Assembly (NCBI GenBank): GCA_045561295.1
Contig: JBJKYD010000015.1
Location: forward strand, 9,888-49,887
Origin: Gammaproteobacteria bacterium
GTDB lineage: Bacteria > Pseudomonadota > Gammaproteobacteria > GCA-002705445 > GCA-002716945
Direction of reading: 5' to 3'
Length of the DNA stretch: 40,000 bases
Shown here: piece by piece, positions 29,854 to 40,000 of the stretch
Layout: every line of letters begins with the position of its first letter
How positions within the stretch are numbered: position 1 is the stretch's first letter
Translations under genes and position numbers: made by a program
Notes under the pieces: model-generated
What the model was told of the DNA's origin: nothing
What the model saw: only the letters and a program-made list of their open reading frames with translations
The model's database searches: none

Positions 29854-30184
29854 GAGAGTTAGTTATACAGCTACTATGTTTTACATAGAGGAAAGTCCGG
29901 GCTCCAGGGATAAAAGCGCCAGGTAATACCTGGAAAATGTGAGTTTTGGAAAGTGCTGCAGAAAATAACCGCCTTCATTGAAGGTAAGGGTGAAAAGGTG
30001 AGGTAAGAGCTCACCGCTGATTAGGTAACTAATTAGGCAAAAGTAAACCCCGCTTGGAGCAAGGCAAATTTGTGATTAATCCCAAAATAATCACGTGGTT
30101 GCTGCTTATGAGGTTATTGGTGACAATAACCCTAGATAAATGGCTGTACAAGACAGAACCCGGCTTATCAACTAACTCTCACAT
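29854..30184 (+). ncRNA. rnpB: RNase P RNA, bacterial type A (compact, about 330 nt)
   Basis: Universal elements GAGGAAAGTCCGGGCTCC (29889-29906) and ACAGAACCCGGCTTA (30152-30166) are present, plus GGTAAGGGTGAAA and GGTAAGAGC as in E. coli M1 RNA. The P1 helix is GAGAGTTAGTT (29854-29864) paired with AACTAACTCTC (30170-30180). Confidence 0.9.
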
Positions 30185-30273: not shown

Positions 30274-30302
30274 TTGCAAATAATAAAAATAAGGCATATA
30301 GT
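30274..30302 (+). promoter_or_regulatory. Candidate sigma70 promoter of the dcw operon
   Basis: TTGCAA (30274-30279), a 17-nt spacer, then TATAGT (30297-30302), about 40 nt upstream of the mraZ ATG. Confidence 0.45.
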
Positions 30303-30345
30303 GTTGATAAATGGAATATTTTGTCAATTAGTGGAGAATAATGGA
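30301..30345 (+). promoter_or_regulatory. Candidate MraZ operator: phased nTGKn repeats at exact 10-nt spacing
   Basis: GTGTT (30301), ATGGA (30311), TTGTC (30321), GTGGA (30331) and ATGGA (30341, which contains the mraZ start codon). MraZ is reported to bind direct (G)TGGG-like repeats with 10-bp periodicity near its own promoter. Confidence 0.35.
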
Positions 30346-30802
30346 TAATTTATTTAAAGGTATACATAACATCAACCTTGATTCAAAAGGTAGATTAGGT
30401 ATACCTGTAACCTACAGAGACCATATCACAGGACTTTTAAAAGGCTCTATGGTTATTACCATCGATACTGAAGAAAAATGTCTACTACTTTACCCCTCTG
30501 GTATATGGGCAAAAATACAAAGCAAAATCAATGAATTACCATCATTTAATAAGAACGCTCGAAGAATACAAAGATTATTAGTGGGTCATGCTGAAGATAT
30601 TGATGTTGATTCCTCCGGCAGAATACTTATTTCTAAACCATTGAGAGAATATGCATCATTAGTTAAAAAAATCATTCTTATAGGTCAGGGTGATAAGTTC
30701 GAAATATGGGATCAAAATTTATGGAATCAAAATGTAGATAAGTGGAGAGACGAGGTGACTTCTAATGATGATGCTGAAGCACTAAGTGATATTAGCATAT
30801 GA
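30341..30802 (+). CDS. mraZ: Transcriptional regulator MraZ
   Basis: 153 aa with two SpoVT/AbrB-like halves. The DSKGRLGIP and DSSGRILI motifs match the MraZ duplicated D-x-x-x-R signature. Confidence 0.9.
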   Translation: MDNLFKGIHNINLDSKGRLGIPVTYRDHITGLLKGSMVITIDTEEKCLLLYPSGIWAKIQSKINELPSFNKNARRIQRLLVGHAEDIDVDSSGRILISKPLREYASLVKKIILIGQGDKFEIWDQNLWNQNVDKWRDEVTSNDDAEALSDISI

Positions 30803-30993
30803 TCAATAATAACTATTTCAAAACTCTTGGCGTATCTCCAAATGAAGATTTGGATATTATTAAAAAAGCATTCAAACGCCTAGCATCTAAATATCATCCT
30901 GATAAAAACAATGACAACATTGATGCTCAAAGAATCTTTATAAAAATTACAACTGCATATGAAAAAATAATGGAGTTTAGAAAAAATGGATAA
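30799..30993 (+). CDS. J-domain-only protein (64 aa, DnaJ-like co-chaperone domain)
   Basis: YFKTLGVSPNEDLDIIKKAFKRLASKYHPDKN....AQRIFIKITTAYEKI is a complete J-domain with an HPD tripeptide. ATGA overlap with the mraZ stop and an 8-nt overlap with the rsmH start. Confidence 0.75.
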   Translation: MINNNYFKTLGVSPNEDLDIIKKAFKRLASKYHPDKNNDNIDAQRIFIKITTAYEKIMEFRKNG

Positions 30994-31918
30994 TACATCT
31001 TTTCATATCCCAGTACTGAAAGCAGACTCTATTCATCAGCTAATTACAGATGAAAATGGCATTTACATAGATGCAACTCTAGGCTATGGAGGGCATACAA
31101 GAGAGATTCTCGATTCAACAAGCAAGAAAGCTAGGATATATGGAATAGACAAAGATATTGATGCTATCGAATTTAATTCGAATGAATTATCAGATGAGAA
31201 GAGATTTACCCTAAGACATGGATGTTTTTCTTCTCTTCATGAATACGCGAAGACATGGAACATTTATGGAGCTGTAAATGGGATACTATTTGATTTAGGA
31301 GTTTCATCAGTTCACTTAGATGATGGCGATAGGGGCTTTAGCTTTACTAAAGACGCTCCATTAGATATGAGATTTAATAGATTGGAAGGTAAAACTGTTT
31401 CTGATTACTTGAATAAATTACCAGAAAAAGAAATTGAAAGAATACTCCGAGTGTATGGTCAAGAAAAGTTCTCAAAAAGGATTGCTCGAAATATCATTAA
31501 GTATAGAGAAAAAAACAGAATAACAAATACTTTTGAACTTGTTGATATTATTAATAAATCTGTTTTAGTAAATGATAAGCATAAACATAATGCTACAAGA
31601 TCATTTCAAGCTCTAAGAATATTCATCAATAAAGAATTGGATGTACTAAAGGATGTTTTAGAGAAATCTTTCGATGTTCTTGCACCAAAAGGAAGGCTTG
31701 TATTAATCACTTATCATTCTCTAGAAGAGAGAGTGATTAAAGATTTTCTAATATATACAGATCACTACTTATCAGCGCCAAGAAAAATTCCAATAAAACA
31801 AGATTTTATGGACAAAATGTTTAATTTAATAAAAAAAATTAAGCCATCCGATGAAGAGATTGAAATAAATCCTCGTTCAAGATCGGCCAAAATTAATGTA
31901 CTTGAGAAACAATCATGA
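30986..31918 (+). CDS. rsmH: 16S rRNA (cytosine1402-N4)-methyltransferase
   Basis: HIPVL, YIDATLGYGGHT, FDLGVSS.HLD...RGFSF, PLDMR and NPRSRSAK motifs are present. Confidence 0.9.
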   Translation: MDNTSFHIPVLKADSIHQLITDENGIYIDATLGYGGHTREILDSTSKKARIYGIDKDIDAIEFNSNELSDEKRFTLRHGCFSSLHEYAKTWNIYGAVNGILFDLGVSSVHLDDGDRGFSFTKDAPLDMRFNRLEGKTVSDYLNKLPEKEIERILRVYGQEKFSKRIARNIIKYREKNRITNTFELVDIINKSVLVNDKHKHNATRSFQALRIFINKELDVLKDVLEKSFDVLAPKGRLVLITYHSLEERVIKDFLIYTDHYLSAPRKIPIKQDFMDKMFNLIKKIKPSDEEIEINPRSRSAKINVLEKQS

Positions 31919-32184
31919 ACCTTGGGACAACATTAATATTAATAGTTTTGATTACTGTATCTGCATTTGGCGCTATTTTTGTTAAATATCAAAACAGAAC
32001 ACTTAATATAGAAGTTTCAAAGAATGAGCGAATATTATTTGAAACATCAGAGAGATATAGAGAGCTTTTAGAGCAAAAGGTAAATCTCACTGATAGTAAA
32101 CTTCAAAAGAGCGGTTTAGGTGAAACGCTTGGAATGAGCCTTCCATCTAAAGAAAGAATTTTAATCATGAACTTAAACAATTAG
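31915..32184 (+). CDS. ftsL: Cell division protein FtsL
   Basis: 89 aa. An N-terminal TM helix is followed by a coiled-coil-like segment and a ..LGMSLPSKERI.. tail, as in FtsL. In the position after rsmH, with an ATGA overlap. Confidence 0.75.
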   Translation: MNLGTTLILIVLITVSAFGAIFVKYQNRTLNIEVSKNERILFETSERYRELLEQKVNLTDSKLQKSGLGETLGMSLPSKERILIMNLNN

Positions 32185-32194
32185 GAGGAACACC

Positions 32195-33340
32195 ATGTTT
32201 GAAATAGTAAATAATTATAATCAGAACGCGGTTATCAAAGTCATTGGTGTTGGAGGTGGTGGCGGTAATGCAATCATATCAATGCTTAAGTCCCAAATTC
32301 ATGGAGCTGACTTCATAATTGCAAACACAGATGTTCAGGCATTAAGAGATGTGAGTGGTGCAACTACCGTACAGATTGGTTCTGAAATCACAAAAGGTTT
32401 AGGCGCTGGGGCAGATCCTGAAAAAGGTAAACAAGCAGCATTAGAAGCAAGTGAAATATTAAAAGAGTCTATTGAAGGCGCTGATATGCTTTTTATTGCA
32501 GCTGGCATGGGCGGTGGAACAGGAACTGGTGCAGCACCTGTGATTGCCCAGATTGCTAGAGATCTTGGTATTTTAACGGTTGCTGTAGTAACCAAACCAT
32601 TTGAATTTGAAGGTCCAGAGAGAATGTCTAACGCTCAAGAGGGCATTGATAACCTTGAGCAATGGGTGGACTCACTTATAGTGATACCTAATTCGAAATT
32701 GAAAGAAGTATATGGTGGTGGAGAGTCTATATTCTCGTCATTTGAAAACGCTAATGACGTTCTAAGAGGAGCTGTTAAAGGTATTACAGAGATAATAACT
32801 ATCAGGGGATTCATGAACGTTGATTTTGCTGATGTTAAAACAGTAATGTCTGGGATGGGTAAGGCCATGATGGGATCAGGTGTTTCATCAGGCGAGAATC
32901 GTGCCATCGATGCTGTAACTGCAGCTCTTAGTAGTCCGCTACTAGATAATATTGATCTTCAAGGCGCGAGCGGTGTATTAGTTAATATCACTTCTGGTTC
33001 TGATCTAACTACTGATGAATTCGAGGTTATTGGTAGTAAAATTCGAGAAATAGCAAATGAAGATGCTAAAATTATAACTGGCTGTATTAAAGAAGATGAT
33101 AACATCGGAGATTTACGTGTGACTATTATTGCTACTGGTTTTTCACAAGATAATAAAATAGATGTAAATTCTTCTGAAGTTAACCAAAGCACACAAGAAA
33201 GCACAACTAATAATCCTAGTATTTCATATCCTAGTAATAGTGAAGCAAAAAATGATGCAATAACACAAGTAAATGTTAGTCAGCAGGAAGATCAGACATC
33301 TCTCGATATTCCAGCATTTTTAAGACAACAAGCTGATTAA
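32195..33340 (+). CDS. ftsZ: Cell division GTPase FtsZ
   Basis: IKVIGVGGGGGNA, tubulin signature GMGGGTGTGAAPV, T7 loop NVDFADV, and the C-terminal conserved peptide DIPAFLRQQAD. Strong RBS TAGGAGGA. Confidence 0.95.
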   Translation: MFEIVNNYNQNAVIKVIGVGGGGGNAIISMLKSQIHGADFIIANTDVQALRDVSGATTVQIGSEITKGLGAGADPEKGKQAALEASEILKESIEGADMLFIAAGMGGGTGTGAAPVIAQIARDLGILTVAVVTKPFEFEGPERMSNAQEGIDNLEQWVDSLIVIPNSKLKEVYGGGESIFSSFENANDVLRGAVKGITEIITIRGFMNVDFADVKTVMSGMGKAMMGSGVSSGENRAIDAVTAALSSPLLDNIDLQGASGVLVNITSGSDLTTDEFEVIGSKIREIANEDAKIITGCIKEDDNIGDLRVTIIATGFSQDNKIDVNSSEVNQSTQESTTNNPSISYPSNSEAKNDAITQVNVSQQEDQTSLDIPAFLRQQAD

Positions 33341-33383
33341 TAATCTAAAAAAAAATCAGAACCTGAGGCTGTCATTATTTATA

Positions 33384-35048
33384 GTGGCAGCCTTTCTTGT
33401 TTTGATAATAATAATTTTTAGACTATATCAGATTCAAGTTAATGCAACGGATTGTTTTTATTTTAATAAAGGATCATGCAAAGAGAATATTCTTGAAGTG
33501 GCTGAAAAAAGGCAAATTCATAGTGTTAAACTGACCGCACAAAGAGGAAGTATCTATGATAGAAACAATAATATTTTAGCTATGTCTTTACCAATAAAAA
33601 CTCTTTGCATTAATCCGAGTAGATTATATAAGAGTAACAATAAATCTATTATGGAATTATCTAAAGATCTTGGTTTATCTGAAAAAAAATTAAAACAAAT
33701 TATTTATAAAAATAAAAATAAAAAAGAATTTTATTTGAAAAGACATGTCTCGAAAGATTTTTATTTAAAAATTAAGAGTTTAAATAATCCTAATCTTTAT
33801 TTTATTAATGAAAATAAAAGAAGTTATCTAGGCGGTAAACCTTTTTCAAATATTTTAGGATTTACAAATATAGATGATAAAGGACAAGAAGGTATTGAAT
33901 TCATAAGTAATAAAATTCTATCACCAGAGCATGGATTAAAAAAAGTGAAAAAAGATAATATCGGTCGTCCCATTGAAACAATAGGCATTATAAGAAAACC
34001 AGTCCCAGGCCAAGATGTTTTTCTCACATTGGATAAAAGAATACAAATAATTGCATATGAAACCCTAAGAAAATATATTACAAAATTTAAAGCTGAGAGT
34101 GGCTCTATAATTTTAATTGAATCAAATACAGGCGACATAATGTCAATGACTAACTATCCATCATTTAATCCAGATAGAAGGAGTGAGTTTAGAGGGAAGA
34201 AAATTAAAAACCGGGCTGTCTATGATTTAATTGAACCTGGATCTACTATTAAACCATTGATAATATACTACGGTTTACACAATGAAGTAATTAGTGAATC
34301 AACAATAATAAATACCGCACCAGGCGTTATTCTACTTGAAGATAAAGAAATTAAAGATTGGAAATATTTAGGAAAAGTAAGTCCAAGAGATATTATTAAA
34401 TTATCTAGTAACATCGGAGCAGCAAAAGTCTCAAGTAAACTCTCAAAGAAACAGCTTATAGACGGATTAAATGAACTAGGTTTCGGTCAATCACTATTTC
34501 TAAATTTACCTGGATCAAAAACTGGTTCTTTGCCGCTTTCATCTGAGTTATCAAATTCAGGCCATATGAGTCTCGGTTATGGATATGGTCTCTCAACATC
34601 ACTAATGCATCTTGCAAGTGCTTTTACTACACTTGCTAATTATGGCAACAGGGTACAAATAAATTATTTGAAAAATAATAAAGACTTTAAAAAAGATAAT
34701 ATTTTAAATAGGGATAACTCAATAAAAGTATTAGATATGATGAGAGATGTAGTACATTCAAACGATGGAACAGGAAGGCAGGCTAAAGTAGAAGGATACA
34801 CGGTTTATGGCAAGACAGGTACAGTTAGACAGATTGTAGATGGCAAATATGCAAAAGATAAACATAACGCCTTATTTGTTGGAATACTAGGAGACCCTGA
34901 ACCTAAATATGTTGCTGCTGTCATAGTAAGGAACCCAAAAAATAAGGAAGGCTCTGGAGGTCTTCATGCAGCACCTATTTTTGGCGAATTTATGCAACAT
35001 TCAATGAGAATTTTAAATGATATAAGTTATGCTAATAACAGACAATAA
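33384..35048 (+). CDS. ftsI: Peptidoglycan D,D-transpeptidase FtsI (PBP3); true start probably upstream at a non-canonical codon
   Basis: PBP dimerisation and transpeptidase domains with STIKP (S-x-x-K), SSN (S-x-N) and KTGT (K-T-G). The first canonical start (GTG 33384) lies inside the membrane anchor; see findings. Confidence 0.85.
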   Translation: MAAFLVLIIIIFRLYQIQVNATDCFYFNKGSCKENILEVAEKRQIHSVKLTAQRGSIYDRNNNILAMSLPIKTLCINPSRLYKSNNKSIMELSKDLGLSEKKLKQIIYKNKNKKEFYLKRHVSKDFYLKIKSLNNPNLYFINENKRSYLGGKPFSNILGFTNIDDKGQEGIEFISNKILSPEHGLKKVKKDNIGRPIETIGIIRKPVPGQDVFLTLDKRIQIIAYETLRKYITKFKAESGSIILIESNTGDIMSMTNYPSFNPDRRSEFRGKKIKNRAVYDLIEPGSTIKPLIIYYGLHNEVISESTIINTAPGVILLEDKEIKDWKYLGKVSPRDIIKLSSNIGAAKVSSKLSKKQLIDGLNELGFGQSLFLNLPGSKTGSLPLSSELSNSGHMSLGYGYGLSTSLMHLASAFTTLANYGNRVQINYLKNNKDFKKDNILNRDNSIKVLDMMRDVVHSNDGTGRQAKVEGYTVYGKTGTVRQIVDGKYAKDKHNALFVGILGDPEPKYVAAVIVRNPKNKEGSGGLHAAPIFGEFMQHSMRILNDISYANNRQ

Positions 35049-36483
35049 TTTAGTACATTTAGAAAAATTCATTATTAGTAACTCAAAAAGGGCTATTAAA
35101 TTTAGTGATAGGTTTTGTATAGATTCTAGAAAAGTTAAATCAGGGCAGATTTTCATATCCATTGATTCTGATGAATCAAAAAATTTTAAAAATATAAAAA
35201 ATGCAATATCTAATGGAGCATCAGGATTTGTTACGCAATTTTTATACAAACGAAGTGACCTAAAGACTTCTATACCTTTTTTAATTCAAAAAAACTTAGA
35301 TAATCTTTTTCATATGTTGTTTAATGTTGATCTCATAGGATATAAACATAAAGTTAAAACTATAGGTATCACGGGTACAAATGGTAAAACATCTTCTGTT
35401 TTATTATTAGCACAATCATTAACCTATTTAAAAAAGAAAGTGGGGGTAATAACAAGCGAGGGATGCGGAATCTATCCCGCATTAGTGGATAGTGATTATA
35501 CAACCCCACCTATTGACGTAATCTATAAATATTATAGAAATTTTGTCTCTAAGAAATGTGATTATATTATTATTGAATGTTCATCACAAGGTTTACATCA
35601 AGGAAGAGTAAAGGGCTTAGCATTTGACTATGCGTGCATAACAAATATCCATAGTGATCATCTTGATTATCATAAAACAATCAAAAACTATTCTAATTCG
35701 AAACTATCTATATTGAAACAAAGTAAAAAAGCTATTTTAAATTATGATTCATCCATACTTATGAAAAACAATTTCAGTAAATATAGAAATCTAGAGTGTT
35801 TTTATTTTTCAAAATCAAGGTATAAAAATAAGAAAATTATATCAAAACATATGAAAGATAATAAAATATTAATAAATAACCATGTTGTTACTTTTGACGA
35901 AGCTAATAAAAATCATTTTAATATTTATTCTTTATTGATGATTTGCTCAATATTAAAACTTGAAAATTATGGTATAAAACTAATTAACTCATCCATTACC
36001 GCTCTTCGTGAATTGTCGGGCAGAAGGCAAGTTATAAGAACCAGAAGTAAAGGTACTTTTATAATTGATTATGCGCATACAGTACAGTCTTTCAGAGACA
36101 TCTATAAAGAATTTAAATCATATAATCACATAACTACACTTTTTGGTTGTGGAGGAGATCGCGATCCATCAAAAAGAGCTATTATTGGAAAAATTGTTGA
36201 TAGTAATTCCTCGTTTTCAATAATAACTGAAGATAATTCACGTAACGAAAAACTCTCTTCAATAGTTAACAATATAACCTCTGGTTTTAATGATAGAAAA
36301 AGGTATATTATTATCAAGTCGCGCAAAACAGCAATAAAACATCTATTTACCTATTCATCAAAAAAACATATTAATTTTATACTAGGCAAAGGAAATGAGA
36401 GTTATCTCATTAAGAATAGTTCAAAAGTAAAACATAATGATATCATTTATTTAAATAATCTTATCAATAACTATGAATCTTAG
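35029..36483 (+). CDS. murE: UDP-N-acetylmuramoyl-L-alanyl-D-glutamate--2,6-diaminopimelate ligase
   Basis: Mur ligase P-loop GITGTNGKTS. Also has DSRKV..G.IF and GCGGDRD..KR near the C-terminal domain (I did not confirm the DNPR motif by eye). In the position after ftsI. Confidence 0.85.
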   Translation: MLITDNNLVHLEKFIISNSKRAIKFSDRFCIDSRKVKSGQIFISIDSDESKNFKNIKNAISNGASGFVTQFLYKRSDLKTSIPFLIQKNLDNLFHMLFNVDLIGYKHKVKTIGITGTNGKTSSVLLLAQSLTYLKKKVGVITSEGCGIYPALVDSDYTTPPIDVIYKYYRNFVSKKCDYIIIECSSQGLHQGRVKGLAFDYACITNIHSDHLDYHKTIKNYSNSKLSILKQSKKAILNYDSSILMKNNFSKYRNLECFYFSKSRYKNKKIISKHMKDNKILINNHVVTFDEANKNHFNIYSLLMICSILKLENYGIKLINSSITALRELSGRRQVIRTRSKGTFIIDYAHTVQSFRDIYKEFKSYNHITTLFGCGGDRDPSKRAIIGKIVDSNSSFSIITEDNSRNEKLSSIVNNITSGFNDRKRYIIIKSRKTAIKHLFTYSSKKHINFILGKGNESYLIKNSSKVKHNDIIYLNNLINNYES

Positions 36484-37802
36484 AGTATCAGATGTAGCCG
36501 AGTATTTATCTTCTTCTTTTGAAGGAACCGACAGAGTAATCAGCAAAATAGTTATCGATAGTAGAGAAGTCAAAAGAGGAGATCTTTTCTTGGCTATCTC
36601 TGGAATCAATAATGATGGACATAAATATATAACAGATGCGATTGATAAGGGAGCAGCTTGTATAATATGTGAAAAGCCTCATAATTTTATATCTTCGTCT
36701 ACTCCAATTATAATCGTTAAAAATTCCATTCAAGCGCTGGGTAATATAGCTAAAAAATATAAAAATAAAATAGGTCAACCACATACCATTGGAATTACAG
36801 GCACTAATGGCAAAACTACAGTAACAAAATTATGTACATCTATACTAAGTACTTCATTTAGAACAAGTGCAACAATAGGAAACTATAATAATGAAATAGG
36901 ACTACCATTATCAGTTCTGAATGCTTCCAATGAAACAGAGAAATGTATTTACGAGCATGGGGCAAGTAAAAAAAATGATATAAACTATTTAACTAAAATC
37001 TCGCAACCAGATTTGACCACCTTATTGAACGTCTCAGAGGCTCATATGGAGTCATTTAAAAGTATGGAAAATCTTATCCAAACAAAAGAAGAGATATTTT
37101 CTCATCCTAGAACTAAGCATATAATTCTTAATATAGACGATGCAAATTTCTCACGATGGCAAAAACTTAATGAGGGTAAGAAAATAACAACTCTATCTTT
37201 AATAGGCAATGCAGATTATGTTATGAAATCTGATGAGGCGGACTATTGTGTGTTGACACCGCATGGTGAGTTTAATGTTGATAAAGATTACACTACTAAC
37301 ATATTACCAATAAATATACTATTTAGCGTAGCAATAACAATGGAATCTGGTTCTACTATTGATGATGTAATTAATGGTTTAAAATCATTTTCTGGAATTG
37401 AGGGTCGGTTTTATACACTCTACTCAAAGAATAAATCTATGATTATTGATGACTCATACAATGCTAACCCCGAATCTATGAAGTCTGCTTTGCGTCAATT
37501 AGCTAGTTATAGTAAGAACAGGATCTTTGTTATGGGAGATATGGGGGAGTTAGGTATAAATTCTCAAAAACACCATCAATCAATATTTCAACTCTCAAAG
37601 CAATTAGGTATAGAATATTTATTTTATATGGGAGAATATAGGAGAAGATGCCGAACAAATATTTGGTGAGAATTGCTATACTTCAGATAACATGGATGAG
37701 ATAGTACAAAAGCTTAAAAAAACCTCAGGCGAAGATTCAACTATCTTGGTAAAAGCATCGCGTTTTATGAATTTTGATTACATCGTAAAGGAGTTAAAAT
37801 AG
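36473..37802 (+). CDS. murF: UDP-N-acetylmuramoyl-tripeptide--D-alanyl-D-alanine ligase, reading frame broken by a +1 shift near 37637-37647
   Basis: IDSREVKRGDLFLAI, GITGTNGKTT, DDSYNANP and MGELG motifs lie in frame A, which stops at 37669. The missing MurF C-terminus (..EDAEQIFGENCY....DSTILVKASRFMNFDYIVKELK) is intact in frame +1 and ends at 37802, 3 nt before mraY. Confidence 0.85.
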
Positions 37803-37805
37803 AAA

Positions 37806-38891
37806 ATGCTTCTGAGTTTCTTTGAATATCTTTCTCAATACAATTCAGGTTTTAATGTCTTTCAATATTTGACATTGAGAACAGTAATGGGCGCAGGGAC
37901 TTCTCTTATAATTTCTCTTATTCTTGGTCCTTACATTATTTCTTACCTTAAGAATAAACAATTCTATCAATCTATACGTGCAGATGGTCCTAAAAGTCAT
38001 CTAGATGATAAAAATACAACTCCAACAATGGGCGGGATTATAATTATATCTTCTGTAGTTATATCAACTACTTTATGGGCCGATTTATCTAATAACTATA
38101 TACTAATACTATTATTTGGAATACTTGGATTTGGTGCTATTGGTTTTTATGATGACTATAAGAAACTTATAAAAAGAAATAGTGATGGCATAAAGGGAAG
38201 ATTAAAACTTCTCCTGCAAATAACATTTGCTTTAGTTATAACGCTATTTTTGTATTTCTTTATGGATACTGGAAGTATTGAATCAGTTTTCCCTTTTTTA
38301 AAAGCAAATAGTTTTTATTTAGGAATACTTTTTATACCATGGTCAATTTTTATATTGGTTGGATCATCAAATGCAGTCAACTTAACTGATGGGTTAGATG
38401 GACTTGCTATATTGCCTTGTATTTTAATTGCATCAGCTTTTGTTATTTTTTCATATGTTCATGGGAATATAAATATTTCATCATATTTATTGATACCATA
38501 TATTGAAGGTAGCGGAGAAGTTGCTATTTTTGCTGCGTCACTTGTTGGAGCAGGATTAGGATTCCTTTGGTTTAACTCATACCCCGCAGAAATATTTATG
38601 GGCGATTGTGGTTCCTTATCATTAGGAAGTTCCTTAGGGCTATTAGCAATCATACTTAAGCAAGAACTAGCGTTTGCAATCATGAGCGGTATCTTTGTGG
38701 CTGAAGCACTCTCTGTAATTATACAAGTTGCATCGTTTAAATTAAGAAAAGGAAAGAGAATTTTTAAGATGGCACCACTTCATCATCATTATGAATTATC
38801 AGGGTTATCCGAACCAAAAATAATTATGAGGTTTTGGATTATTACGTTCATATTAGTACTAATCGCCTTGGCTACACTTAAAATTAGATGA
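37806..38891 (+). CDS. mraY: Phospho-N-acetylmuramoyl-pentapeptide transferase
   Basis: Polytopic membrane protein with PTMGG, DD..K, NAVNLTDGLDGLA and MAPLHHH motifs. Confidence 0.9.
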   Translation: MLLSFFEYLSQYNSGFNVFQYLTLRTVMGAGTSLIISLILGPYIISYLKNKQFYQSIRADGPKSHLDDKNTTPTMGGIIIISSVVISTTLWADLSNNYILILLFGILGFGAIGFYDDYKKLIKRNSDGIKGRLKLLLQITFALVITLFLYFFMDTGSIESVFPFLKANSFYLGILFIPWSIFILVGSSNAVNLTDGLDGLAILPCILIASAFVIFSYVHGNINISSYLLIPYIEGSGEVAIFAASLVGAGLGFLWFNSYPAEIFMGDCGSLSLGSSLGLLAIILKQELAFAIMSGIFVAEALSVIIQVASFKLRKGKRIFKMAPLHHHYELSGLSEPKIIMRFWIITFILVLIALATLKIR

Positions 38892-40000
38892 ATATATATC
38901 AAGACTCCTTTCTCATACTGGGGAAAGGCATGACTTATCAAAACTGCAGAGAGTTTTTTGATAAAGAATCTGTTTCCTATGAAGCGCTAGAGACAAGTGA
39001 AATACTTGATATAAAAGATCGTCATTTAATTCTTAAAAATAAAAAAATAAATTTAGATAATATTGATTATTTTATTATTAGCCCTGGAATTTCAAAGAAA
39101 AATTCTATCTTGAAAAAACTTATACTACTTAAATGCAATATAACTACAGATATAGAAATTCTTCAAACTATCACAAAATTAAAATGCGTATGTATTACCG
39201 GTACAAATGGTAAGACATCAACTATAAACTTAATATCAGACATATTAAATAGTAATAATATCAAAACTTTAGCATGCGGCAATAATGGTGTATCCATATT
39301 TAAATCCCTTGAGGATAATTATGATTTTATAGTCCTAGAGCTATCAAGCTACCAATTAGAATATATTAAAAACCTAGATTCTCATATATCTGCTATTTTG
39401 AATCTATCGCCTGATCACCTAGAAAGACATGGAACGTTGAAAAATTACTTCAAAACAAAATTAAAAATATTTGACAACGCAAAGTATAAAATAATAAATA
39501 ATAATCTAGAATATTCTAAAAAAGACATTACATTTGATGTAAAGAATAATTCGATATATATTAATAACAGGTCTATAGAAAATTTAGTATTCAAAAACTA
39601 TAATTTCATCTCATACAAAGATGAAGAGCATGAGATTAATGGCAGGCACGAGGCTTACAACTTATCTGCATGTATTGCAGTTTTAAGTGTATTGGGATTG
39701 TCAATAGATGAGATAATACTCGGATTTTCTAAACGAGCTCATTTATCACATCGACTGGAAAGATTCTGTACTTATGATGGCATTACATACATCAATGATT
39801 CAAAATCAACTAATTCAGATTCAACGTTAAATGCATTAGAGTCTGTAGATGAAAATATTGTATTGATTATGGGAGGAGACAAGAAAAAGATTTCTTATGA
39901 TTCATTAAAAAATATAATTAATAATAAAGTCAAATTATTAATACTAATTGGAGACAATAGACAATATATCAATAATCAATTATCTGTGAAGGTAGATACT
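38888..40000 (+). CDS. murD: UDP-N-acetylmuramoylalanine--D-glutamate ligase, 3' partial (runs off window)
   Basis: Not in the ORF track because no stop lies in the window. Hand translation gives MNIYQDSFLILGKGMTYQ...CITGTNGKTST...VLELSSYQLE...LNLSPDHLERHG. ATGA overlap with mraY. Confidence 0.85.
   Translation, partial: MNIYQDSFLILGKGMTYQNCREFFDKESVSYEALETSEILDIKDRHLILKNKKINLDNIDYFIISPGISKKNSILKKLILLKCNITTDIEILQTITKLKCVCITGTNGKTSTINLISDILNSNNIKTLACGNNGVSIFKSLEDNYDFIVLELSSYQLEYIKNLDSHISAILNLSPDHLERHGTLKNYFKTKLKIFDNAKYKIINNNLEYSKKDITFDVKNNSIYINNRSIENLVFKNYNFISYKDEEHEINGRHEAYNLSACIAVLSVLGLSIDEIILGFSKRAHLSHRLERFCTYDGITYINDSKSTNSDSTLNALESVDENIVLIMGGDKKKISYDSLKNIINNKVKLLILIGDNRQYINNQLSVKVDT

Follow-up and report, generated by a model that had tools for sequence, protein, structure and literature searches.

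The window analysed here, the whole stretch of 40,000 nt (C15:9888-49887), comes from the draft genome G000 (1.03 Mb, 19 contigs, ~31-32% G+C, 92% complete, 6.8% contamination). The host order comprises uncultured, low-GC marine Gammaproteobacteria with genomes of ~1 Mb. Inside the window we observed the cell-division gene ftsZ in the proximal part of the dcw cluster (genes for division and the cell wall), in the gene order mraZ, a 64-aa J-domain gene, rsmH, ftsL, ftsZ, ftsI, murE, murF, mraY, and murD. Textbooks treat the dcw gene order as frozen, and the FtsZ:FtsA ratio is thought to be set by the placing of ftsZ behind ftsA with promoters of its own. In the host order a single, vertically inherited ftsZ moved ~13 kb forward in the common ancestor of the order.

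The open reading frame at 32195-33340 (+) encodes 381 aa and matched PF00091 (Tubulin/FtsZ GTPase, E 1e-47) and PF12327 (FtsZ_C, E 2e-29), both far above the cut-offs. Its translation showed the nucleotide-binding signature GGGTGTG (GGGTGTGAAP), the T7 motif NVDFADV, and the C-terminal peptide for FtsA/ZipA, DIPAFLRQQAD. The initial annotation had described a complete, canonical FtsZ with tubulin signature, T7 loop, and C-terminal peptide, and these Pfam domains and motifs agree with it. Its spacings were also confirmed by the coordinates, as the ATG of ftsZ lies 10 nt past the ftsL stop, a TAG that opens TAGGAGGA (32182-32189), and ftsZ ends 43 nt ahead of ftsI when counted to the first canonical in-frame start, GTG 33384. 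The ftsZ Shine-Dalgarno sequence, AGGAGG, gave a duplex energy of −10.2 kcal/mol with the anti-Shine-Dalgarno (anti-SD) sequence, compared with +1.7 to −8.2 kcal/mol for the nine other cluster genes. It is the strongest among the ten cluster genes in the window, so the ribosome-binding site had rightly been called very strong, and the GGAGG ahead of ftsZ is conserved in all 6 genera of the host order. The features of the locus are as follows.

29855..30183, + strand: rnpB, RNase P RNA gene, immediately ahead of the cluster (Rfam RF00010, 273 bits, E 3.5e-89)
30274..30302, + strand: candidate sigma-70-like promoter TTGCAA-17-TATAGT upstream of mraZ (consensus match only)
30341..30802, + strand: mraZ (Pfam MraZ, E 3.6e-33)
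30799..30993, + strand: J-domain-only gene of 64 aa between mraZ and rsmH (Pfam DnaJ, E 1.6e-16)
30986..31918, + strand: rsmH, or mraW (Pfam Methyltransf_5, E 1e-98)
31915..32184, + strand: ftsL (Pfam FtsL, E 3.7e-6, above cut-off)
32183..32188, + strand: ftsZ Shine-Dalgarno AGGAGG, 6 nt ahead of the ATG (anti-SD duplex energy)
32195..33340, + strand: ftsZ, single copy, relocated (Pfam, genome search, synteny, and tree)
33333..33338, + strand: putative non-canonical ftsI start codons CTG-ATT (GCTGATTAA), overlapping the last ftsZ codons and stop
33365..33394, + strand: 13-bp hairpin in the first ftsI codons, loop at 33378-33381, then TCTTGTTTTG (terminator-like match, fold, and covariation)
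33333..35048, + strand: ftsI, encoding penicillin-binding protein 3 (PBP3), 5' end uncertain (Pfam PBP_dimer and Transpeptidase; N-terminal analysis)
35029..36483, + strand: murE (Pfam Mur ligase domains; tblastn with E. coli MurE)
36473..37803, + strand: murF, in two frames in the assembly, frame change near 37640 (tblastn with the intact 442-aa G004 MurF)
37806..38891, + strand: mraY (Pfam Glycos_transf_4; 51% identity to E. coli MraY)
38888..40000, + strand: murD, cut at the end of contig C15 (tblastn)

Position and inheritance of ftsZ in the host order

The host order, as sampled, holds 37 species in one family and 6 genera. All 22 loci taken from these 6 genera read rsmH-ftsL-ftsZ-ftsI, or ftsZ-ftsI where the locus was cut. 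The same order was observed in 14 loci from public records, partly from the same genomes as the 22; allowing for this overlap, the two sets give 31 distinct loci in total. The public loci include the single-cell genomes (SAGs) AG-461-I20, AG-390-N19, and AG-894-P10 as well as Tara and other metagenome-assembled genomes (MAGs), on contigs of up to 937 kb. Of the 37 genomes, 35 have ftsA; where it shares a contig with ftsZ, it lies ~12-13 kb downstream.

The closest relative, G004 (FtsZ 98% identical), has the complete cluster on a 212-kb contig. Here the full dcw gene set stands on one strand from mraZ to ftsA and then lpxC, as mraZ, J-domain gene, rsmH, ftsL, ftsZ, ftsI, murE, murF, mraY, murD, ftsW, murG, murC, murB, ddl, ftsQ, ftsA, lpxC. 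G013 and G019, from other genera, showed the same order without murC inside the cluster, murG being directly before murB. In these three full clusters from three genera, ftsQ-ftsA was followed directly by lpxC, with no ftsZ remnant. With ftsL-ftsZ-ftsI at one end and ftsA-lpxC at the other, ftsZ in the host order is not the distal gene directly past ftsA.

One ftsZ match was obtained in G000, and likewise one in relatives that are 99% complete. The second ftsZ paralogue that the initial annotation had considered is rejected, given the single match in G000 and the full clusters without ftsZ between ftsA and lpxC. It had also pointed to the sequence downstream of murD as the place of ftsW to ftsA or of a second ftsZ. 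In G000 this could not be followed, because contig C15 ends one base past the window, within murD (MurD residue 371/428); in the relatives it could, and ftsQ-ftsA-lpxC stood there without ftsZ. At the end of contig C14 stand the 50 C-terminal residues of LpxC, which match the closest relative at 96% identity, and ftsW to ftsA plus the 5' part of lpxC, ~8.5 kb, are unassembled in G000.

The FtsZ tree placed the host order in one clade (support 100) on a long stem branch of 1.27 changes per column. The clade sits inside gammaproteobacterial FtsZ at a node of moderate support (SH-aLRT, an approximate likelihood-ratio test, 84) and adjoins a family of canonical gene order with a support of 91. The gamma-type C-terminal peptide DIPAFLRQQAD was kept in every genus of the order. 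This tree position and the kept peptide fit a native gene that moved. Together with the single copy and the ftsA-lpxC neighbourhood of the three full clusters, the tree shows the relocation of the only ftsZ into the proximal dcw region. If a second or foreign ftsZ had replaced the original gene, the long stem and the ~55% identity to other class members, among the matches listed, would fit; but the copy is single, the clade lies within gammaproteobacterial FtsZ beside the canonical family, the C-terminal tail is retained, and no ftsZ remnant stays between ftsA and lpxC, so we regard a replacement as highly improbable. The draft state of the genome (19 contigs, 6.8% contamination) and a contig ending in murD might raise the suspicion of an assembly or binning artefact. 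An assembly error had indeed been named as what could undo the observation, but the same junctions recur in 31 distinct loci, on contigs of up to 937 kb and in SAGs and MAGs of different studies. Since all relatives of the order that were examined share the arrangement, chance and assembly error are both excluded, and the probability of an artefact is negligible.

A few further observations concern the cluster and its assembly. The J-domain gene overlaps both of its neighbours, mraZ and rsmH, and is without counterpart in the E. coli cluster; it was matched by tblastn in the loci of the host order wherever the relevant stretch was present. murC lay within the cluster only in genus g1, and murB stood ahead of ddl in all three full clusters (L039/G004, L040/G013, L041/G019). 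Residues 1-389 and 390-442 of the intact G004 MurF (442 aa) matched different frames of the window, which reflects either a sequencing error or a real frameshift in murF.

A loss of ftsA and ftsQ in G000 was considered and rejected, as the relatives carry ftsQ-ftsA and the G000 contigs break in murD and lpxC. The Pfam FtsA match in G000 was MreB, followed by mreC and mreD, and FtsQ gave no match in G000, where the distal cluster is an assembly gap. ftsW-like and murC-like matches on contigs C6 and C10 were rejected as the missing cluster genes, with 32-34% identity to those of the closest relative; they are probably the paralogues RodA and Mpl. G019 showed two near-identical extra FtsZ-like frames on small contigs (C2:12116-13042 and C6:11737-12663; 47% identity, 354 aa). 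As this genome has 5% contamination, these frames could be a contaminant or a mobile element.

ftsZ positions across the Gammaproteobacteria

The positions of FtsZ and FtsA were surveyed in one genome (>=90% complete, i.e. at least 90%) for each of 135 other families of the class, and 140 genomes were compared. ftsA lay directly ahead of ftsZ in 128 of the 135 families. Diverse other phyla had ftsZ behind ftsA, or behind murG/murC where ftsA gave no match. A published survey of the dcw cluster describes its gene order as among the most stable known and makes no mention of ftsL-ftsZ-ftsI (PMC8871954). The initial annotation had allowed that the order might turn out to be common and already catalogued. 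It is indeed the norm throughout the host order, but the 128 families keep ftsA-ftsZ, and no paper describing ftsZ between ftsL and ftsI was found in the literature searched. The order-wide dcw variant is real and apparently unpublished.

Compared with the canonical dcw cluster of E. coli K-12 (mraZ-rsmH-ftsL-ftsI-murE-murF-mraY-murD-ftsW-murG-murC-ddlB-ftsQ-ftsA-ftsZ-lpxC), the host order has the same gene set on a single strand and the same relative order of all other genes. It differs in having ftsZ between ftsL and ftsI, ftsA abutting lpxC, the J-domain gene past mraZ, and murB before ddl.

Forward moves of ftsZ have arisen independently at least three more times in the class, one of them in cultured bacteria. 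The family of G105 and of the cultured Thiomicrorhabdus heinhorstiae HH1 (L061, L123, L140-L169), which contains cultured sulfur oxidisers, showed mraZ-rsmH-ftsZ-ftsL-ftsI in 30/30 loci. As in the host order, ftsZ has moved to the proximal cluster and is fixed in the family; here, however, the insertion is one gene earlier, before ftsL, and ftsI has a canonical GTG and no unusual hairpin. In G105, ftsA is ~1.3 Mb from ftsZ. The order of G076, with small genomes in four families, showed three ftsZ positions (L120, L170-L199). One family has rsmI-ftsZ-rsmH-ftsL-ftsI (12 loci), and mraZ was not found there; a second has rsmI-mraZ-ftsZ-rsmH (14 loci, plus one shorter locus mraZ-ftsZ-rsmH); and a third, f241, has ftsA-ftsZ-ftsI (2 loci). 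This order resembles the host order in that ftsZ moved forward in streamlined marine Gammaproteobacteria and, in f241, also stands directly before ftsI. Its insertion points are different, however, and the f241 ftsI has AGGAG and an ATG. The FtsZ of G076 is without the DIPAFLR tail.

In the FtsZ tree G105 clustered with Thiomicrorhabdus, away from the host order. Because G105 stands apart in the tree and the insertion points differ, the forward moves are separate events. Among the other class members with ftsZ not directly behind ftsA, L121 (G129), L122 (G145), and L124 (G107), the two genes were on different contigs in two and separated by a 1.8-kb insert in one.

The ftsI start region and its hairpin

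The FtsI membrane anchor, an Arg followed by 17 hydrophobic residues and another Arg, was observed in all genera of the host order. In the window, the ftsI frame is open from 33324 and has no ATG, GTG, or TTG ahead of this anchor. The same holds for 28 of the 32 distinct junctions; the remaining 4 have an ATG or TTG, giving a short tail. In five genera ftsI is in the +1 frame relative to ftsZ, and the first stop met on reading back from it lies within the end of the ftsZ coding sequence. Genus g4 has ftsI in the ftsZ frame (0), where the first stop met is that of ftsZ itself, and only a TAG stands between the two frames. Over the spacers, the ftsI frame showed 0 stops in 297 codons, compared with 53/293 and 17/265 in the other two frames; a frame kept open in this way is as expected if it is translated.

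All +1-frame junctions carry a CTG and/or ATT that overlaps the end of ftsZ (GCTGAYTAA), which in the window are the CTG at 33333 and the ATT at 33336. The g4 junctions carry an ATT or ATC and then ATA right past the TAG, or else an ATG. Altogether 31 of the 32 junctions have a CTG, ATT, ATC, or ATA within ~7 nt of the ftsZ stop, all of them non-canonical candidates. Anti-SD duplex energies revealed no Shine-Dalgarno sequence ahead of the ftsI candidate start codons. The GTG at 33384 was tried as the ftsI start and rejected, as it leaves ~11 hydrophobic residues, is not conserved, and has its GAGG 17 nt upstream. In these genomes, gene callers that require ATG, GTG, or TTG will cut the FtsI membrane anchor short. 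Neither the start-less ftsI nor the hairpin at the new junction figured in the initial annotation.

A hairpin of 13 pairs occupies 33365-33394, in a stretch of 30% G+C, with a folding energy of −19.5 kcal/mol (z = −5.5 compared with shuffles). All six genera carry it, its register against the ftsI codons unchanged and its sequence differing (arms, for example, GGCTGCTGTTAT/ATAACAGCAGC, GGAGACAAT/ATTGTCTCC, GGCGGCAAT/ATTGCCGCC, and GAGACGATCAT/ATGATCGTCTC). For the covariation, 32 distinct sequences were aligned without gaps and anchored on codons. Hairpin cells were paired in 83%, compared with 34-56% when the partners were slid, and changes on both sides were seen in 11 of the 15 pairs. The covariation score was 0.49, compared with 0.24 in shuffles, and 0/500 shuffles reached 0.49. 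Some of the compensations alter amino acids, e.g. Ser to Ala opposite AGA to CGA. G-U cells outnumbered A-C cells by 30 to 11, an excess that favours the sense RNA strand.

The outgroup set consisted of nine ftsI 5' ends (five canonical families, E. coli, Thiomicrorhabdus, G076, and G105). All nine had canonical starts, charged N-terminal tails, and no unusual fold (z −1.8 to +1.9). As the outgroups are without the hairpin, it is a derived trait of the host order, tied to the new ftsZ position; the loss of the canonical start is likewise derived. Compared with the E. coli K-12 gene, the ftsI of the host order is without a Shine-Dalgarno sequence, is usually without a canonical start, and has the conserved 5' hairpin. 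No known Rfam family was found at the hairpin. No other terminator-like site on the cluster's + strand comes close to it in strength, the sole other one being a 5-bp stem in murD. How pronounced the U-run past the stem is depended on the lineage: the best 8-nt window contained 3 to 8 T, with strong runs in some lineages and weak ones elsewhere.

Predicted control of FtsZ and FtsI output

FtsI is needed in far lower amounts than FtsZ. An ftsI that mostly lacks a canonical start and begins within the conserved hairpin probably keeps FtsI far scarcer than FtsZ. In the proposed mechanism, the proximal promoter region would drive ftsZ together with mraZ-rsmH-ftsL, ftsZ translation would be strong, and FtsI output would be a low, fixed fraction of FtsZ. 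Ribosomes finishing ftsZ would rarely restart at a near-cognate CUG, AUU, AUC, or AUA a few bases from the ftsZ stop, and the hairpin would block independent ftsI initiation. In some lineages the hairpin with its U-run may also end part of the transcripts. Abundant FtsZ could in this way share one operon with FtsI and downstream enzymes, both scarce. Taken as a whole, this reading of the sequence (an ancestral ftsZ move, strong ftsZ translation, and a low, ftsZ-coupled FtsI with a damping hairpin) is in our judgement likely to be correct.

Several points weigh against it. Since the genomes are related and lack independence, the hairpin's shuffle statistics, including the 0/500, overstate the signal. 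The U-run is weak in several lineages and falls within T-rich membrane-anchor codons, and among the 32 junctions no single candidate ftsI start codon is conserved through all genera. The space for a cluster promoter between rnpB (29855-30183) and mraZ is ~157 nt, and sigma-70-like matches in this region were no more numerous than in shuffles. Because the promoter scan gave no signal above shuffles, an internal ftsZ promoter is neither shown nor excluded. The initial annotation had also expected a changed expression coupling of FtsZ and FtsA, which is plausible; ftsZ and ftsA remain in one co-directional cluster.

The hairpin could also act mainly as a partial intrinsic terminator, an attenuator past ftsZ, with ftsI expressed by weak non-canonical initiation uncoupled from ftsZ. 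Its terminator-like appearance in the scan, where it is by far the strongest such + strand site of the cluster, and the strong T-runs behind the stem in several lineages (e.g. L008, L009, L021, and L022) would suit this role. The T-runs are weak in L005, L010, and L018, however, and can be explained by the Phe/Leu/Ile codons of the anchor; an attenuator would also leave unexplained why the start candidates cluster at the ftsZ stop and why a Shine-Dalgarno sequence is absent. We consider this account rather unlikely. An inverted repeat that works as DNA, whether as a palindrome bound by a protein or as a scar of the recombination that moved ftsZ, would match its location exactly at the new junction and its absence from the outgroups. 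But its sequence varies between genera while pairing is kept, which fits a folded strand and not a sequence-specific site, and the surplus of G-U cells over A-C cells points to the sense strand; a DNA-level role is improbable.

Very unlikely, too, is a membrane-anchored FtsZ-FtsI fusion made by recoding, which would call for ribosomes to shift by +1 close to the ftsZ stop in five genera and to read through the TAG in g4. In its favour, no stop interrupts the ftsI frame as far as, or across, the ftsZ stop, most junctions are without a canonical start, in g4 only the TAG separates the frames, and the topology of a cytoplasmic FtsZ followed by an anchor would be compatible. The frame relation of +1 or 0 between genera, however, would need two recoding mechanisms, and the change in g4 argues against any fixed recoding that fuses FtsZ to FtsI. 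Moreover, the GAU/GAC-UAA carries no slippery or prfB-like motif, a normal ATG or TTG start is present in four junctions, and the hairpin begins 22-30 nt past the stop, too far for the usual frameshift stimulators.

The coupled, hairpin-damped FtsI that we favour would have relatives among known systems. The rplL-rpoB attenuator is an internal operon attenuator, and trpB-trpA is an overlapping stop-start pair; in such systems a stem-loop or a stop-start overlap within an operon sets the unequal output of neighbours, the role proposed here. The junction described here differs on two counts: its stem is within the coding start of an essential gene, and the restart is presumed to use a non-canonical codon. 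The two loci of f241 (L197 and L198) have an 8-9-bp hairpin, CTATTCTTC..GAAGAATAG followed by TTTCT, ~20 nt into ftsI, in one genus only. By analogy, it may be a similar damping element.

A stronger version holds that ftsI is without independent initiation throughout the host order, that FtsI is made only by non-AUG restart at the ftsZ stop with the hairpin as gate, and that the repeated forward moves of ftsZ in marine lineages are selected ways to simplify division-gene control. We put this forward tentatively, as possible but doubtful. If it is true, the FtsI:FtsZ ratio would be hard-wired in the mRNA.

The junction is notable, and its mechanism is a proposal from the sequence. For the biology of division, this stable, order-wide exception shows that the position of ftsZ behind ftsA is not required. 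The forward moves of ftsZ, taken together, serve as natural experiments in the setting of division-gene dosage. A concrete, testable case of expression control in the coding start of an essential gene is offered by the start-less ftsI and its covarying hairpin.

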